In this document: positions 9,602-63,194 of the stretch, piece after piece
Position numbering within the stretch: position 1 is the stretch's first letter
How the letters are laid out: each line of letters begins with the position of its first letter
IMG/VR virus record: IMGVR_UViG_3300037840_000148
Span: 46,832 to 110,831 of that record
DNA from: a virus
Reading direction: 5' to 3' (one strand)
DNA: 64,000 nucleotides
The notes under the pieces: generated by a model
The model's input: the letters and a program-made list of their open reading frames with translations, nothing else
Told to the model about the DNA's origin: nothing
Databases searched by the model: none
Program-made: the position numbers and the translations under genes

Positions 9602-10171
9602 TCATAACGCTTTCTTTGGCCCACGGGCTTGATATTTATCCGGTTTCGCAACGAAACTTTCAAAATCCACCGGAGCGTAATTTGTGTACTCGATAGCGAA
9701 CAACCGCTGCCACGGATTATTTAACCGCTCGTGTTTCATGACATCATTGGCCGAAAAATCTCCATATTTTGGGTCATTAGGATGAAAACCGTGCCAGATA
9801 TTGTGTAGATGCCCGTGCAAATTAAGCTCTGCCCCTTCCGGTAAAGACTTAGCGGGCTCGTGTGTCAACCAACAGTTTCTAAACATCAAGCCGTCACATG
9901 CGAAATCAAATCCGGCTTTCATCCAACGGAGATTCGACCATTGCCGGTCGTGATTACCGCGAACAAGGATCTTTTTGCCTGGTAATGCCGGTATAATCCA
10001 ATCACTTTTCTTCCCGATTTGAACGTCTCCGAGATGGATTATCAAATCGTCCGGTTTCACGATTTGATTCCAATTCTTGATGATTCGCTCCGTGAAGTCC
10101 GTCGGGCGGTCGCAGTATGTCGTGATATTTTGATGATTAAAGTGGGTATCCGAGCAAATAAAAGTCTTCAT
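9602..10171 (-). CDS. calcineurin-like metallophosphoesterase
   Basis: SDTHFNH, HLGD, GNHD, HGHLH; start placed at MKTFI after GAGGA SD. Confidence 0.88.
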   Translation of the reverse strand: MKTFICSDTHFNHQNITTYCDRPTDFTERIIKNWNQIVKPDDLIIHLGDVQIGKKSDWIIPALPGKKILVRGNHDRQWSNLRWMKAGFDFACDGLMFRNCWLTHEPAKSLPEGAELNLHGHLHNIWHGFHPNDPKYGDFSANDVMKHERLNNPWQRLFAIEYTNYAPVDFESFVAKPDKYQARGPKKAL

Positions 10172-57759: not shown

Positions 57760-57834
57760 GCAAGATTGGTCTAGCGCTCATGACGCCGCACCTGTAATGC
57801 GGAAGCCGAAGTTGGACTCTTCGATTTTGCTCCA
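57760..57834 (+). tRNA. tRNA-Thr(TGT), atypical
   Basis: cloverleaf; ccgca-CCTGTAA-tgcgg; CCA end. Confidence 0.65.
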
Positions 57835-57839
57835 AAGTT

Positions 57840-57891
57840 TGTACGTACAATTAGGGGGTGCTGCAACACCCCCACTAAACCTTTGCAGAGG
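57840..57891 (+). promoter_or_regulatory. TGTACGTACA plus kissing-loop leader, copy 2
   Basis: loops CTGCAA and TTGCAG; second stem CCT/AGG. Confidence 0.8.
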
Positions 57892-57898
57892 AGAATAG

Positions 57899-58252
57899 AT
57901 GTCTCATAAAGATTCTAAAGTTCGTTCTGATTATTATAAACAATGGTATCAAGAAAATAGAAGCGACGAAATCAAAAGAGCTAGAAGTAATCAAAATTAT
58001 TTAAGACAATTTATACAAACAAAGAAAGACGTTCCTTGTAAAGATTGTGGTATAAAGTATCCATATTACATTATGGCTTTTGATCACGTTCGAGGAAAGA
58101 AATTAGGTAATTTAAGTCGGATGCACGTCATGTTTGGAAAAGTTCAGATATTAAAAGAAATAGCGAAATGTGATGTTGTTTGTGCTAATTGTCATGCTGC
58201 CAGAACCTGGAAAAGATTAAAAGGCAGACTGAAAGATTGGACGGAGATTTAA
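57899..58252 (+). CDS. HNH-type endonuclease
   Basis: CKDCG, FDHVRG.K, EIAKCDVVCANCH..RT. Confidence 0.85.
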   Translation: MSHKDSKVRSDYYKQWYQENRSDEIKRARSNQNYLRQFIQTKKDVPCKDCGIKYPYYIMAFDHVRGKKLGNLSRMHVMFGKVQILKEIAKCDVVCANCHAARTWKRLKGRLKDWTEI

Positions 58253-58293
58253 CAGTTTAAGTCCTCGCACGTATTGTACGGTGAGGCAGGATA

Positions 58294-58364
58294 GGCTCTA
58301 AACGTGGGTTCGAGTCCCACACGATGCCTTCGGGGATTGTTCGTCTAGCGGTAGGACGAGAGCC
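58294..58364 (+). ncRNA. circularly permuted tRNA-like RNA (YrlA/Y-RNA-like module)
   Basis: T arm, then acceptor stem capped by cUUCGg, then D arm; closed by ggctct/agagcc. Confidence 0.7.
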
Positions 58365-58370
58365 ATGATT

Positions 58371-58444
58371 GTGGTCGTAGCCTAAAAGTAAGGCACGGGC
58401 CTGTGAAGCCTGTTAAGTGGGCGCGTTACCCACCGATCACCCCA
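58371..58444 (+). tRNA. tRNA-His(GTG)
   Basis: CTGTGAA loop, C73, CCA. Confidence 0.8.
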
Positions 58445-58445
58445 T

Positions 58446-58519
58446 ACGGGAATCTTATAGTGGCAGTATCTATGCGTCGGAAGCATAGGGCGCTGATTCG
58501 ATTTCAGCTTCCCGTACCA
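58446..58519 (+). tRNA. tRNA-Pro(CGG)
   Basis: tatgc-GTCGGAA-gcata, CCA. Confidence 0.75.
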
Positions 58520-58561
58520 ATTTTAGAAGTATAGTAATTGGAGTGTAGTATAGGAGTAAAA

Positions 58562-58858
58562 ATGGACGTCGTTTCTATTGTGGCGAATTTGCAAAAAGAA
58601 CGTGATTGGTATAAAGAACAGTTTAAAGAATGTCAAGCCATCATAAAGCAACTTGTCGATGGCCCTGGTGAGTTTGAATACATCCACCCGTTTGACGTCG
58701 CGGAGATGTTTAATATTGCTGGTGGCACCGATTTTATAGATGTCTTTACGAAGTCATCATACGCGGCAGATACGAACGGTTGTTTTATATGGGGTAGTTC
58801 CGGAAAGAAATACAAACAGTCTCCGAATATTCCGGCGAAGTCAAAGAATTTTAAATAA
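58562..58858 (+). CDS. hypothetical protein
   Basis: AGGAG SD before ATG at 58562. Confidence 0.6.
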   Translation: MDVVSIVANLQKERDWYKEQFKECQAIIKQLVDGPGEFEYIHPFDVAEMFNIAGGTDFIDVFTKSSYAADTNGCFIWGSSGKKYKQSPNIPAKSKNFK

Positions 58859-58933
58859 CGAGAAGTAGCTTAATAGCAGAGCACACGGTTTGGAGCCGTG
58901 GGGGTGTTCGTGCAATTCGAACTTTCTCGACCA
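58859..58933 (+). tRNA. tRNA-Pro(TGG)
   Basis: cacgg-TTTGGAG-ccgtg, CCA. Confidence 0.85.
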
Positions 58934-58938
58934 ATTTT

Positions 58939-59076
58939 ATGATAGCAACGTTAGCATTTTTAGCAGGAATGTTTTTCACCTTGATTGTCGCTCATACAAG
59001 AATGACATTCAAGAAAAAGGCCGCCCTCGTTGCATTAGCAGGAGCCGTGGTCGGAGTAATAATATTTTTAAGTTAG
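58939..59076 (+). CDS. small two-helix membrane protein (not in ORF track)
   Basis: MIATLAFLAGMFF...VVGVIIFLS fills the tRNA spacer; no SD. Confidence 0.45.
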   Translation: MIATLAFLAGMFFTLIVAHTRMTFKKKAALVALAGAVVGVIIFLS

Positions 59077-59152
59077 GCTGTCTGACGTAACTGGTAAACG
59101 TGTTGGTTTCAAAAACCAAATTCTCTGAGTTCGAGTCTCAGGATAGCCACCA
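59076..59152 (+). tRNA. tRNA-Leu(CAA), short variable arm
   Basis: ttggt-TTCAAAA-accaa, TTCGAGT loop, CCA. Confidence 0.75.
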
Positions 59153-59153
59153 T

Positions 59154-59241
59154 ATCGGTATGGCGAAATTGGCGAGACGCAATTGGCTTAAACCCAATCG
59201 GGGTCATACCCATACAGGTTCGAATCCTGTTACCGATACCA
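59154..59241 (+). tRNA. tRNA-Leu(TAA)
   Basis: class II cloverleaf, CCA. Confidence 0.9.
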
Positions 59242-59248
59242 AATTTAT

Positions 59249-59334
59249 CCGTCGCTGGTGGAAATGGCGAGACACGATAGTCTTAGAAACTATTGGAGAA
59301 ATCCGTGAAAGTTCGAATCTTTCGCGACGGACCA
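59249..59334 (+). tRNA. tRNA-Leu(TAG)
   Basis: class II cloverleaf, CCA. Confidence 0.9.
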
Positions 59335-59430
59335 TTTTAGTACCGCTGCCTGTGGTAAAAGGCAACGCCCTCGTCAAGGAAGTCGTGACGTAAACCGAGG
59401 CGTAAAGAGTATCGGTCTTAAATTTTCAGT

Positions 59431-59504
59431 GGGCTTTTGGTCTACCGCGATGACGGATGTTTTGCAAACATCAAGAAGCAGTTGGATTCTGCTAAGGTCC
59501 ACCA
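59431..59504 (+). tRNA. tRNA-Ala(TGC)
   Basis: G3:U70 pair, TTTGCAA loop, CCA. Confidence 0.82.
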
Positions 59505-59512
59505 TTTTCTAA

Positions 59513-59585
59513 TGCGGGAAGCTTTGGTAAGCAGGTAGCTCTCATAAGGCTCGCCACCGCGATTCGATTTCGCGTCCCGCGACCA
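59513..59585 (+). tRNA. tRNA-Met/Ile2(CAT)
   Basis: CTCATAA loop, CCA. Confidence 0.7.
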
Positions 59586-59593
59586 TTTTCAAA

Positions 59594-59667
59594 GCGTTCA
59601 TGGCCGATTGGTTAGGCACTTGGCTTCCACCCAGGACAAGCGAATTCGATTTTCGCTGAACGCTCCA
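59594..59667 (+). tRNA. tRNA-Gly(TCC)
   Basis: CTTCCAC loop, U73, CCA. Confidence 0.88.
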
Positions 59668-59740
59668 AGATTGTCGAAGCGCAGGACTGGTAGAGCCCGT
59701 AAACTCGGAGCACCGGTTTTAAGCGGTCGACAAGCATTTC

Positions 59741-59814
59741 GCGGCTCTCGTATATTGGCAGTACGAGACCTTGCCAAGGTTTAAGAAGGGGTCCGATTCC
59801 CCTGAGCCGCTCCA
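59741..59814 (+). tRNA. tRNA-Gly(GCC)
   Basis: TTGCCAA loop, U73, CCA. Confidence 0.88.
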
Positions 59815-59989
59815 AGTTTCTCAGTCGTGTGGATAGTATCGCGCTGAAACGAGTTGAGGGTGAGCCGTCAGGCTACGAGAAACACCCAACACTTCCGCTC
59901 CCGCGCCGACTACTTTACGCTCGTTCTTTGTGGATCTCGGGGCTTTCGGGCACCGAATAAGGTCGGTCACACGACATTTTTTTTTCTAA

Positions 59990-60064
59990 GCAGGGCTGGT
60001 CCAGTGTCCAAGACGCGCCCCTCGTAAGGTCGAAACCGAAGTTAAATTCTTCGGCCCTGCTCCA
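59990..60064 (+). tRNA. tRNA-Thr(CGT)
   Basis: CTCGTAA loop, CCA. Confidence 0.75.
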
Positions 60065-60065
60065 A

Positions 60066-60139
60066 GCCGAAGTAGTTCAATGTTAGAACGGTGCATTGGT
60101 AATGCACAGGCTCAGGTTAGATTCCTGGCTTTGGCTCCA
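60066..60139 (+). tRNA. tRNA-Thr(GGT)
   Basis: TTGGTAA loop, CCA. Confidence 0.88.
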
Positions 60140-60146
60140 GTTTTTA

Positions 60147-60221
60147 GCAGAGGTAGTTTAGCAGGAAAAATAAATCCTCGGTAAGGATTAGTCTCGGGTT
60201 CGAAGCCCGACATCTGCTCCA
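60147..60221 (+). tRNA. tRNA-Thr(GGT), atypical second copy
   Basis: aatcc-TCGGTAA-ggatt, CCA. Confidence 0.65.
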
Positions 60222-60295
60222 TGTTTCAACGGGACGGGATAAGCCATTCGCGAATGGATAAGCCTGAGGTCATAACTCTAACGTCCCCCAGTTTT

Positions 60296-60372
60296 GGGTT
60301 GCTAGTGTCAATACGTAACACAGCGGACTTTTAATCCGACGAATCTTGGTGCAAATCCAAGGCGACCCACCA
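60296..60372 (+). tRNA. tRNA-Lys(TTT)
   Basis: CTTTTAA loop, CCA. Confidence 0.85.
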
Positions 60373-60478
60373 ATTTCTACGGGATCTGAATTCGAAAAGA
60401 AACGAATAGTCATCGTGAAAACTAGTGAGTAGCGATGAAAGGTGTTGGTTAAAATTCCGGCCGATCCCAGACATTTGT

Positions 60479-60554
60479 GAACTGCAGGTGTTAGCGACAG
60501 CATTCTTCCCTCTTAAGGAATGAGGTCCGGGTTTGAGCCCCGGGCGGTTCACCA
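60479..60554 (+). tRNA. tRNA-Lys(CTT)
   Basis: CTCTTAA loop, CCA. Confidence 0.78.
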
Positions 60555-60715
60555 AGTTTGTTTAAGTCGAGGGAATTGCCGACTGAAGAAATTCAGCGGT
60601 TCGACTAGGTTATGTCACGGCGATGCATAGGATAAAGGAAGCCCTCCTGACTGTGTTATCTTCGAACTCTACCGAATGACTGCTGTGATGAGTCGGTAGT
60701 AAACAAAAAAGTTAA

Positions 60716-60790
60716 GGGCTTATCGTCCAATGGATAAGACGCGGCGCTACGAAAGCCGAAACCAAGGTCCAAATCCTTGTAGGCCCTCCA
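60716..60790 (+). tRNA. tRNA-Arg(ACG)
   Basis: CTACGAA loop, CCA. Confidence 0.88.
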
Positions 60791-60891
60791 GTATTTATCG
60801 GTATACTGGCATGAATGACCCGGGACATCACCGGAGCCCGGTATTCACGTTAAGTAAACCGAAAGCGAGTGAGAGTCTCGCAACATTTTAT

Positions 60892-60967
60892 GATCCTGTC
60901 GTCCAAATGAATAGGGCTTCAGTCTTCGAAACTGATTATCTCGGTTTGAGTCCGAGCAGGATCTCCA
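60892..60967 (+). tRNA. tRNA-Arg(TCG)
   Basis: CTTCGAA loop, CCA. Confidence 0.85.
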
Positions 60968-61030
60968 ATTTTATGTAATGCGATGCGTTGGTCCTAAGTG
61001 TGGTTGACAGGGACATCTGGCCCGGCATTA

Positions 61031-61071
61031 ACGCCTGACGAGACGAAAGTCGAAACGGGAAACCGTAGCGT
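61031..61071 (+). ncRNA. type I hammerhead ribozyme
   Basis: acgc-CTGACGA-gac(GAAA)gtc-GAAA-cgg(GAAA)ccg-TA-gcgt; full core, GUA cleavage triplet. Confidence 0.88.
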
Positions 61072-61131
61072 GGAGTCGCCCCTGCCGGGGAATAAATGGC
61101 GACCTATAGACCACACACTTTTTATTTTAAT

Positions 61132-61206
61132 ACGCGACTGGCAGATCGTTACATGCAACGGCCCTACACGCCGTCCAGCGAGGTTAGACTCCTCGGTTGC
61201 GTACCA
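61132..61206 (+). tRNA. tRNA-Val(TAC)
   Basis: acggc-CCTACAC-gccgt, CCA. Confidence 0.75.
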
Positions 61207-61296
61207 TCTTGATTAGAGTGGACACCGCGGTGCCGCGCTCTGTAATGTCCGAGGTTTGGTGAACTTAACCTCGTAAAAATAATCACCAGACTTTGA

Positions 61297-61386
61297 TGTC
61301 GGCAGCATTAGATGCAGCGCGGTCTTATAAGCCGCGAAACACCCGATAAGTGTGCCGAGATGGGGCAGAACCATCGCCGACAACCA
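61297..61386 (+). tRNA. tRNA-Ile(TAT)-like, long variable arm
   Basis: gcggt-CTTATAA-gccgc, 7-bp acceptor stem, CCA; atypical D and T loops. Confidence 0.6.
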
Positions 61387-61466
61387 ATTTGCAGGCGCTT
61401 GCGCCGCAACGATGCGTAACATGACAAAGGGCGATTACCAGTCATGGGTAGATCGCTCGACATTTT

Positions 61467-61540
61467 AGCCTGTTAGTGCAATGGCAGCACACTAGACTTT
61501 CAATCTAGTAGCGCGGGTCCGATTCCCGCACGGGCGACCA
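61467..61540 (+). tRNA. tRNA-Glu(TTC)
   Basis: CTTTCAA loop, CCA. Confidence 0.82.
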
Positions 61541-61544
61541 TATT

Positions 61545-61621
61545 CGGCGGGTAGCTCAATTGAAAAGAGCAATCCTCTTCTAAAGGAAAGATTGTGGGTT
61601 TGAGTCCCACCCTGTCGACCA
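61545..61621 (+). tRNA. tRNA-Arg(TCT)
   Basis: CTTCTAA loop, CCA. Confidence 0.85.
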
Positions 61622-61630
61622 TTTTAGTTT

Positions 61631-61973
61631 TGGTAGTCTAGGCAATCGCGGCGGATGGTATGCTGAATCCTGATTGATAATCAGGTAGGGAAACCGAAGC
61701 AAAGAGTCCCGTCGAGGAAAGTCAGGACTCACGAGTCACGACACGGTGGAAGCTGCCGGGTGAGTAATCACACGAGTAAGGCTTTGTATATGTTATTTTA
61801 TATCAAACTAAAGATCTGATATAAATTAACATATCATTCAAGCGAAGTAACTCTCTGTCGGAGCAACTTCAAGTAGGCCGAGAGCCAGACTCAGGCGATG
61901 ACCGGCGGGTGAAGGCATAGACGAATGATTGCCGCGGCGCAAGCCGAACCGAATCCTGCTTATCAGACCGCCA
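61631..61973 (+). ncRNA. rnpB: RNase P RNA
   Basis: CR-I GAGGAAAGTCAGG pairs with CR-V ACCGAATCCTGCTTA; P1 and P2 (gcaatc/gattgc) present; GAGCAA and TAGACGAATGA motifs. Confidence 0.88.
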
Positions 61974-61984
61974 TTAAATTTTAT

Positions 61985-62060
61985 TGTCGAGTAGCTCAAA
62001 TGGACAGAGCGCTAATTTCCTAAATTAGTAATTCGGGTTCGACCCCCGACTTGACAACCA
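61985..62060 (+). tRNA. tRNA-Arg(CCT)
   Basis: TTCCTAA loop, CCA. Confidence 0.88.
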
Positions 62061-62065
62061 TTTTC

Positions 62066-62153
62066 GGATAGTTCGTATAGCGCCAATTACTGCTGGCTGT
62101 AAACCAGCCGCTCCATGTGAGCTTCCAAGGTTGGAGTCCTTGACTATCCACCA
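62066..62153 (+). tRNA. tRNA-Tyr(GTA)
   Basis: CTGTAAA loop, long variable arm, CCA. Confidence 0.85.
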
Positions 62154-62167
62154 TTTTAATTTTCAAT

Positions 62168-62243
62168 TGTCATCTGGTCTAATCGGCAAGATGGGGCACT
62201 GTTAATGCCTAAGATCTCGGTTCGAATCCGAGGGTGACAGCCA
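62168..62243 (+). tRNA. tRNA-Asn(GTT)
   Basis: CTGTTAA loop, G73, CCA. Confidence 0.88.
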
Positions 62244-62251
62244 ATTTCAAC

Positions 62252-62329
62252 GAGGGTGTCGCGTAGAGGCCAATCGCACTGTCCTGTCACGACAGACTAT
62301 CGTGGGTTCGACTCCCATCACTCTCGCCA
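62252..62329 (+). tRNA. tRNA-Asp(GTC)
   Basis: CTGTCAC loop, G73, CCA. Confidence 0.9.
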
Positions 62330-62336
62330 TTTCAAA

Positions 62337-62413
62337 CTACTCGATGCCGAAGTGGCCGAGGCGGAAGTTTGCAAAACTTCTCTTAGGGAGTTCAAGCCTC
62401 CCCGGGTAGTCCA
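62337..62413 (+). tRNA. tRNA-Cys(GCA)
   Basis: TTGCAAA loop, U73, CCA. Confidence 0.85.
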
Positions 62414-62414
62414 A

Positions 62415-62488
62415 GGCTTTGTCATCTAATGACAGGATACGCGGTTCTCATCCGCGGCATACGGGTTTGATCCCCGTCAGAGCCCCCA
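62415..62488 (+). tRNA. tRNA-Glu(CTC)
   Basis: cgcgg-TTCTCAT-ccgcg, CCA. Confidence 0.78.
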
Positions 62489-62493
62489 ATTTT

Positions 62494-62553
62494 TGTACGT
62501 ACAATTAGATGGGACGTGCCAGATACACGTCCCGTCAACTCTTATCTGGAGAG
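62494..62553 (+). promoter_or_regulatory. TGTACGTACA plus kissing-loop leader, copy 3
   Basis: loops CCAGATA and TATCTGG; second stem CTCT/AGAG. Confidence 0.8.
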
Positions 62554-62557
62554 CAAA

Positions 62558-62980
62558 ATGAAGATATGTATTAAGTGTGGAAAAGAGGGTGAGTTTTTTA
62601 TACGTTCCGATAACGGAAAAGAATATTCTCGTTGTAAGAAATGTACCACTTTGTATAATAAAAATTATCACGCTAAAAATCTTTTACAAGAAAGAGAACG
62701 TAGTCGACTTAAACATTATAAACAAAAATACGGAATAACTTGGGAAGATAAGATCCGTATGTACGAAGAATAGAAAGGAGTTTGTGCTTGTTGTTTTAAG
62801 ATATTACCTCCTGTGACGGATGTAGAAGTTTGTGTAGATCATGATCATGAAGCTAAAAAAGTTCGGGCTTTAGTACACCGCGATTGCAATTGGTTGATAG
62901 GTTGGATAGAAAATCATCCTGAGTTGGTGCAACCAGCCCTTAATTATGTTGATAGATTTAAAAATATGAGAGTCGTTTAA
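62558..62980 (+). pseudogene. endonuclease VII-family gene interrupted by an in-frame TAG (62771-62773)
   Basis: YGIT...MYEE*KGVCACC...VDHDH..KKVRALVHRDCN continues in frame. Confidence 0.8.
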
Positions 62981-63040
62981 CGGCTAGGACTGCGGTCTCC
63001 AAAACCGCGTATGGTGGTTCGATTCCATCCTCTCATGCCA
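62966..63040 (+). tRNA. tRNA-Trp(CCA)
   Basis: CTCCAAA loop, G73, CCA. Confidence 0.9.
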
Positions 63041-63104
63041 TCTTGATCCTTGATTCAATTGGGGAAAAATCGTAGGTAGGTTGAAACCCCTACCCCAAGT
63101 TTAC

Positions 63105-63194
63105 GGTTGATTGGCAGAGAGGCTGATCGCAGAACTTTGCTAAAGTTCCATACTCGAAAGGGTATCGTAGGTTCAAATCCTACATCAACCGCCA
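63105..63194 (+). tRNA. tRNA-Ser(GCT)
   Basis: TTGCTAA loop, long variable arm, G73, CCA. Confidence 0.9.

Follow-up and report, generated by a model that had tools for sequence, protein, structure and literature searches.

According to our in silico analysis, a type I hammerhead ribozyme located in a phage tRNA array lies inside another structured RNA, a double pseudoknot (hereafter the knot RNA) that measures about 95–105 nt without the hammerhead. The hammerhead belongs to a known class; its host RNA is uncatalogued. We consider it probable, at roughly 0.6, that the hammerhead nicks or matures the knot RNA and that severing of the tRNA precursor would be a by-product. The position of this hammerhead, from a class whose purpose is mostly open, is fixed and interpretable, and the finding exposes a widespread RNA family across unrelated phages. 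The existence of uncut forms, and of permuted forms with ends at the cut site, makes maturation or nicking of a non-coding RNA a testable role, and experiments are feasible because cultured carriers exist (Arthrobacter phages Constance and Karkharias and Enterobacter phage SDFMU_EhYP).

Structure of the knot RNA

The stretch of DNA analyzed (the window, 64,000 nt) comes from an IMG/VR virus record of 110,831 bp that has direct terminal repeats, and makes up its last 64 kb. The source phage has no close cultured relative, its ribonucleotide reductase being at most about 41% identical to those of known phages. The window contains 28 plus-strand tRNA genes at 57760–63194, and the knot element stands between two of them, behind an AU-rich spacer of 18 nt that follows tRNA-Arg(UCG). 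No promoter or terminator signal was seen between the element and its tRNA neighbors. A whole-genome search with a covariance model showed that the element is single-copy. Its features are as follows.

60892–60967 (+): tRNA-Arg(UCG) with encoded CCA, upstream neighbor of the knot RNA
60986–60991 (+): conserved 5′ tail CGUUGG (N-CGUKGG in the family), from family alignment and mutual information
60991–60995 (+): helix H1, 5′ strand GUCCU, stem 1 of the first pseudoknot; pairs with 61010–61014, covariation at 5 of 6 positions
60998–61004 (+): outer helix P0, 5′ strand GUGUGGU; pairs with 61110–61116, 7 of 7 pairs change on both sides
61010–61014 (+): helix H1, 3′ strand GGGAC, from family alignment and covariation
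61015–61020 (+): conserved AUCUGG, directly 3′ of the H1 3′ strand
61021–61027 (+): helix C, 5′ strand CCCGGCA, stem 1 of the second pseudoknot; pairs with 61083–61089
61031–61071 (+): type I hammerhead, in loop 1 of the second pseudoknot, from direct reading, pattern uniqueness and family statistics
61031–61034 and 61068–61071 (+): hammerhead stem I, ACGC/GCGU, 4 bp, read from the sequence
61035–61041 (+): hammerhead core CUGACGA (C3–A9), read from the sequence
61042–61051 (+): hammerhead stem II, GAC-GAAA-GUC, 3 bp with a GAAA loop, read from the sequence
61052–61055 (+): hammerhead GAAA (G12–A14 at 61052–61054), read from the sequence
61055–61066 (+): hammerhead stem III, (A)CGG-GAAA-CCG(U), 4 bp with a GAAA loop, closed by A61055–U61066
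61067 (+): hammerhead A17, predicted scission between 61067 and 61068
61069–61075 (+): conserved CGUGGAG, kept with or without the hammerhead
61075–61080 (+): helix B, 5′ strand GUCGCC, stem 2 of the second pseudoknot; pairs with 61098–61103, covariation
61083–61089 (+): helix C, 3′ strand UGCCGGG, in the loop of hairpin B, covariation
61090–61097 (+): A-rich loop 3, GAAUAAAU (GAAUAAMU in the family), A61096 pairing with U60989
61098–61103 (+): helix B, 3′ strand GGCGAC, followed by CUAUAG at 61104–61109, covariation
61110–61116 (+): P0, 3′ strand ACCACAC, covariation; the element ends at about 61118
61132–61206 (+): tRNA-Val(UAC), downstream neighbor, 15 nt past P0

The strands follow each other in the order H1a, P0a, H1b, Ca, Ba, Cb, Bb, P0b, which amounts to two interleaved H-type pseudoknots (H1/P0 and C/B); the 5′ strand of P0 sits in the loop of hairpin H1. 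The hammerhead is inserted between helix C and the conserved CGUGGAG, the CGU of which doubles as 3′ strand of stem I. All four helices and the conserved motifs CGUKGG, AUCUGG, CGUGGAG and GAAUAAMUG are present at 60986–61116. The folding energy of the region is unexceptional (z = −0.73, with a program that cannot model pseudoknots).

The initial annotation had proposed the outer helix, the pairing of CCCGGCA with UGCCGGG and the hairpin GUCGCC/GGCGAC; all three exist where it placed them and covary in more than 100 relatives. Its extent of 60998–61116 was too short, as a second pseudoknot and the 5′ tail CGUUGG had been missed. A long-range pair, U60989–A61096, connects this tail to loop 3 and is G–C in 79 and U–A in 27 of 111 aligned sequences; in the hammerhead-less set, the same pair is G–C in 13 and U–A in 9, and is never unpaired. 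Since the tail is both paired and conserved, the element really starts at about 60985, and we define it as 60985–61118. In the family consensus, the two halves of the knot resemble an internal duplication: N-CGUGG-G, hairpin H1 with a P0 strand in its loop and then CUGG in the first half, N-CGUGG-A, hairpin B with a C strand in its loop and then CUAG in the second.

The hammerhead

A complete hammerhead core at 61031–61071, with the cut placed after A61067, had been described in the initial annotation and is borne out by reading of the sequence, by the uniqueness of the pattern and by family conservation. The element has C3–A9, G12–A14, the A15.1–U16.1 pair and a position 17 other than G, and its topology is that of type I, stems II and III being closed by loops and stem I open. 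The full pattern occurs once in the 64-kb window even when one mismatch is allowed, and never in 100 shuffles.

A search with a hammerhead model, suggested at the outset as a check, gave a mixed answer. The Rfam Hammerhead_1 model (RF00163) aligns with the element over its whole length (model positions 1–45) but scores 20.6 bits, under the gathering score of 34, with an E value of 0.0086 on 181 nt and of 0.33 on 7 kb. A whole-genome Rfam search at E ≤ 0.001 returned no hammerhead match. The low score arises because the stems are very short, and a motif below the Rfam threshold would not pass curation alone.

The window hammerhead is minimal, with a 3-bp stem II and a 4-bp stem I. No tertiary contact between stem I and loop II is recognizable in it, nor is there a conserved partner for the stem II loop. 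Minimal hammerheads without such a contact are slow at physiological Mg2+; the host knot could stand in for it. Docking of a GAAA tetraloop into a CCUAAG-like receptor at 61103–61109 was also considered and dropped, as the loops of stems II and III vary freely across the family.

Relatives and covariation

When IMG/VR and metagenome contigs were first scanned for this hammerhead layout, 16 distinct sequences came up, all of which share the outer helix, the hairpin and the pseudoknot. The arms of the pseudoknot vary yet stay complementary (CCCGGCA/UGCCGGG, CCCAGAU/AUCUGGG, CCCUUGC/GCAAGGG, CUGGC/GCCAG and CAAUCC/GGAUUG). A second search, with motifs of the non-hammerhead 3′ half, yielded 126 unique relatives. 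About 81 of them (about two thirds) have a hammerhead at the same place and about 28 (about a quarter) have only 11–31 nt there; because the relatives were gathered with sequence patterns, the proportions of these two forms and of the permuted form described below are biased estimates. Altogether, more than 150 distinct copies were found in IMG/VR and metagenome contigs.

Mutual information over 111 aligned sequences recovered the four helices H1, P0, C and B and two isolated long-range pairs. Helix C is 100% paired, with changes on both sides in 4 of 6 pairs. Among 22 hammerhead-less sequences, 91% of cells are paired compared to 73% in shuffles, and 21 of 27 pairs change on both sides; none of 500 shuffles reaches the observed values and slid controls are 36–51% paired. 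A covariance model built from these 22 members finds the window element at 60985–61118 with 49.4 bits (E = 1.5e-9) and aligns with it end to end (positions 1–96), the hammerhead appearing as a 54-nt insert. The initial annotation had treated the pseudoknot as an addition to the ribozyme. Conservation of the knot RNA without a hammerhead in about 28 of the 126 relatives goes against this idea; the pseudoknot may or may not gate cleavage. The topology is retained, with different sequences, in divergent subfamilies (L001, L008/L089 and L011 types), and their H1 covaries (UCAC/GUGA compared to GUUGC/GCAAC).

The family occurs in a phage that has a large tRNA array, in a T7-like phage of Enterobacter and in phages of Arthrobacter. 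In Arthrobacter phages Constance and Karkharias, the hammerhead sits in loop 1 and the element appears to be flanked by tRNAs. BLASTN against cultured phages gave no match at the default threshold and five weak matches at E up to 10; the two that were read are both true members. A scan of bacterial genomes, restricted to the variant with GAAA in both hammerhead loops, gave 47 loci and no true member, a result that does not imply absence from bacteria.

Three further observations were made on these contigs. The minus strand of L187 carries two hammerhead-bearing knot copies in tandem, at oriented positions 1285 and 1464, about 170 nt apart; such a pair could plausibly be a step between the standard gene order and the circularly permuted one. 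In Arthrobacter phage Constance (MH834605), genes 67 and 68, tiny "hypothetical protein" genes at L308 1778–1977, overlap both an apparent tRNA 3′ end and the knot RNA (L308 1908–2052), the latter over its first 70 nt, and are probably mis-annotated non-coding DNA. L283, a phage contig that combines a large tRNA array with a hammerhead-less knot RNA, has a match to the type-P1 twister model at 9770–9828 (+), at 52.2 bits for a gathering score of 67.2 (E = 8e-9).

Conservation of the hammerhead and of its predicted cut site

Loop 1 is long in 84 relatives, and in 83 of these it parses as a hammerhead. Positions 3 and 8 are C and G in 81 family hammerheads and show the compensatory change to U and A in 2 (L212 and L251, with UUGAUAA in place of CUGAUGA); natural covariation from C3–G8 to U3–A8 in hammerheads has been described by Perreault et al., 2011 (PMC3088659). 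Position 17 is C in 54, A in 27, U in 2 and never G. Pairing is kept in stem II through 58 distinct sequences and in stem III through 70. Compared to the usual G–C, positions 10.1/11.1 are A·A in 28 and U·U in 9 (37/83, about 45%) and are followed by normal pairs (AGC…GCA); L164:165–174, L122 and L167 are examples, and the window has the canonical G–C. The core and the cut site are degenerate in L209. At the level of sequence, these patterns show that purifying selection acts on the hammerhead.

The predicted cut lies exactly 1 nt 5′ of YGYGGAGU (CGUGGAG in the window) in 81 of 83 family hammerheads. Since this heptamer is also kept in hammerhead-less members, the ribozyme is positioned relative to the knot and not to the tRNAs.

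A circularly permuted form

We found a circularly permuted form of the knot RNA in 32 unique sequences, namely Enterobacter phage SDFMU_EhYP and 31 IMG/VR sequences. Its 5′ part consists of the hammerhead, N|CGYGGAGU-B-C3′-loop 3-B and then the 3′ strand of P0; its 3′ part consists of a connecting hairpin, CGUGGG-H1-P0 5′-H1, AUCUGG, the 5′ strand of C and the end. The helices still covary (GAGCCAU/GUGGUUC and CCCUGCA/UGCAGGG in L290, GAGCGCC/GGCGCUC in L289). The ends of the permuted form fall in loop 1, where the hammerhead of the window is predicted to cut. A 5′ hammerhead is present in all permuted copies for which upstream sequence is available, and terminators lie 3′ of several copies. 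In SDFMU_EhYP, which is T7-like, the element comes after the capsid gene and a terminator, 50 nt before the start of tail tubular A.

The family as read from its genes is organized in three layouts, in which loop 1 is closed, predicted to be self-cut (as in the window) or open. In L246, L311, L315, L320, L327 and L330, the permuted copy lies between direct repeats, CATCATTGAT(T)CC, and in L302 a GACACCCCGGAAAGACGGGG hairpin is found on both sides of it; the direct repeats hint at insertion or exchange of the copies as a cassette.

Genomic contexts

We detected tRNAs in 46 of the 126 loci, always on the knot element's own strand. In several arrays, the element fills an exact tRNA slot, the next tRNA starting 2–5 nt past P0, and in five arrays its 5′ end (N-CGUKGG) lies 1 nt past the upstream tRNA. 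Some hammerhead-less copies likewise occupy tRNA slots. Among 88 non-tRNA loci, about 9 have a −10-like box 5–7 nt upstream, which is a modest enrichment. The proteins encoded nearby are highly diverse (394 clusters among 429 ORFs) and no partner protein emerged. Only one theme recurs, the head and packaging module, with the terminase large subunit in 15 cases, plus portal and major head proteins; in L252, the order is terminase, element, portal.

Proposed role of the hammerhead

We propose that the knot RNA of the window would be co-transcribed with the tRNAs and that the hammerhead would cut this RNA between A61067 and G61068. Cleavage would free CGUGGAG from the 4-bp stem I and leave a 5′-OH end. 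The resulting RNA would be in two pieces, joined through the 7 bp of helix C and the 7 bp of P0, and the ribozyme would hang from the 5′ piece. The tRNA ends would be made by the usual enzymes, the phage encoding an RNase P RNA. Against this proposal, hammerhead-less members show that the knot RNA tolerates an uncut loop 1. As for the knot RNA itself, we lean toward a stable RNA gene acting in trans. It is located in tRNA slots, has promoters and terminators of its own in some phages and occurs in phages of both Proteobacteria and Actinobacteria, all of which suggests a stable RNA with a universal target. It could be, for example, a mimic, decoy or sponge directed against a universal host factor or defence, or a catalytic or ligand-binding RNA. 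The broader proposal, that this is a new functional class of phage RNA, stable and trans-acting, with three interchangeable layouts and the hammerhead as its dedicated maturation enzyme, is tentative and in our judgment falls short of even odds; if true, it would be the first example in DNA phages of a self-cleaving ribozyme whose natural task is the assembly of another non-coding RNA.

The initial annotation had assigned to the hammerhead the cutting of the tRNA-Arg/tRNA-Val precursor, with the pseudoknot as a stabilizing or gating accessory. A cut at 61067/61068 would indeed physically sever the transcript running from tRNA-Arg to tRNA-Val, the element lies between same-strand tRNAs with no promoter or terminator signal nearby, and theta ribozymes at phage tRNA ends offer a precedent (PMC10879173). 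As a purpose, however, tRNA processing fits poorly. The cut falls 100 nt past the 3′ end of tRNA-Arg and 64 nt before the 5′ end of tRNA-Val and so makes no tRNA end, and the array has its own RNase P RNA. The presence of a hammerhead is also independent of tRNA adjacency: a tRNA is found within 150 nt in 25 of 81 hammerhead-bearing relatives, which speaks for processing, but also in 7 of 28 hammerhead-less ones (Fisher p = 0.64), and the remaining 56 of 81 are away from tRNAs, for instance between terminase and portal genes. Together with the conservation of the pseudoknot RNA by itself, this makes tRNA processing an unlikely purpose. We give a similarly low standing to a self-cleaving processing site acting in cis, comparable, in self-contained form, to the RNase III sites of T7, in which new ends (a 2′,3′-cyclic phosphate and a 5′-OH) buried in the knot would shield flanking RNAs from end-dependent RNases. 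Such a site would account for the same-sense intergenic positions in late operons, as in L252 and SDFMU_EhYP, and for the 12 copies located within 80 nt upstream of a same-strand ORF start, and the two halves would remain paired through helices C and P0 after the cut. The contexts are mixed, however, with a tRNA directly downstream in 22 cases, a terminator-like hairpin in 13 and none of these features in 63; where the element fills a tRNA slot exactly, it would be excised by RNase P and 3′ processing and nothing would be protected, and hammerhead-less copies cannot split a transcript.

Two other explanations appear highly improbable. The hammerhead might be an inactive relic or a selfish insertion without a role, kept by recent common descent, in keeping with its optional presence in the family, its sub-threshold Rfam score and the degenerate core and cut site of L209. 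Against this, the core is intact in 83 of 84 sequences, double changes at positions 3 and 8 occur while position 17 is never G, dozens of differing stems II and III are still paired across divergent knots in unrelated phages, and the permuted form always has a hammerhead. It is just as hard to defend the knot as a sensor of a ligand or protein, or as a ribozyme itself, with the hammerhead as regulated output of a natural allosteric ribozyme. The two folds could compete, as the CGU of CGUGGAG is common to stem I and to the knot, in a layout like that of engineered aptazymes. However, we see no ligand, partner or regulated gene, the family also functions in the absence of a hammerhead, mapping onto HDV-like, pistol and tRNA folds failed, and Rfam searches at E up to 10 matched no riboswitch or ribozyme family.

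Comparison with known RNAs

In common with bacterial and phage type I hammerheads (RF00163; PMC3088659), the window hammerhead has the CUGANGA…GAAA…UH core in a three-way junction, closed stems II and III with an open stem I, a short stem II and an intergenic site in a phage. It differs from them in having neither a recognizable contact between stem I and loop II nor the pseudoknot between stems I and II described in PMC3088659; the pseudoknots found here are those of the host RNA, a separate entity, from whose loop stem I projects. Theta ribozymes (Kienbeck et al., 2024, PMC10879173) are likewise small self-cleaving RNAs of phage tRNA clusters, cleavage being predicted from sequence in our case, and they too are doubly pseudoknotted, as is the host RNA here. 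They cut at their own 5′ end, directly at a tRNA 3′ end, whereas the predicted cut of the window hammerhead lies inside another RNA, far from tRNA ends. An HDV-like or theta fold was rejected for the knot RNA: there is no P3/L3, only UGACA (61005–61009) between the second and third strands, and, in contrast to HDV-like ribozymes, the element has conserved and paired nucleotides 5′ of its first helix.

The T4 species 1 and 2 RNAs (rnaC and rnaD) occupy the same niche, as stable non-tRNA RNAs in slots of a phage tRNA array, and lie directly after tRNA-Arg, as does the knot element of the window. Homology was rejected on reading the sequences, which have no recognizable sequence or motif similarity and no hammerhead. 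Naturally permuted RNAs (hammerhead types I–III, twister and two-piece tmRNA; PMC10085705) resemble the present family in that one fold occurs in two gene orders and that one form likely ends as two base-paired pieces. In this family, the permuted object is a double-pseudoknot RNA and the break point lies at its built-in hammerhead.

Several other assignments were considered. A tRNA cloverleaf, with the outer helix as acceptor and a "D-arm" at 61005–61020, was rejected, as the D-stem pairs do not covary and the helices interleave; ARAGORN and the Rfam tRNA model gave nothing at 60968–61131, and the 3′ tail past P0 is not CCA. The sequence of the pistol ribozyme also begins with CGUGG. A pistol fold was rejected, as the element has no CCACG partner. 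A T-box-like capture of tRNA CCA ends by UGGN was dropped, G24 of the tail being already engaged in a covarying pair.

With Rfam 15, the window element gave only the sub-threshold Hammerhead_1 match and no knot family at E up to 10, hammerhead-less copies matched no family at E up to 1, and scans of permuted copies returned no knot family. We found no description of the knot architecture in the literature searched. The passages searched in a 2023 phage catalogue, which lists 10,006 unnamed structured-RNA candidates (PMC10690425), and in a 2026 preprint with a sub-threshold hammerhead cluster (10.64898/2026.10.21.760802) do not describe it; both may contain members.

Other RNAs in the tRNA arrays

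The tRNA array of the window also encodes a bacterial class A RNase P RNA at 61630–61978 (+), which aligns with the full model (1–367) at 84.9 bits for a gathering score of 100 (E = 3e-25). It retains GAGGAAAGUC and the 3′ …GAAUCCUGCUUA region, and the specificity domain is missing in large parts. A second phage array (L209, 4115–4423) has an RNase P RNA too, at 92 bits; no description of phage RNase P RNAs was found in the literature searched.

Weak Rfam matches to the two ends of the tmRNA model, at 57854–57877 and 58303–58320 (+), bracket a 467-nt gap between tRNA-Thr and tRNA-His. The segment 57854–58320 may be a divergent or interrupted tmRNA; ARAGORN made no tmRNA call there. A related array has a clear tmRNA (L184, 7067–7457, 83.7 bits) about 330 nt past its knot RNA. 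Finally, the inter-tRNA gaps at 60791–60891, 61207–61466 and 62489–62965 (100–480 nt) have no tRNA or Rfam assignment and show obvious hairpins in some cases; they may contain further small RNAs outside the catalogues or, for the longest gap, a small gene of a homing endonuclease.
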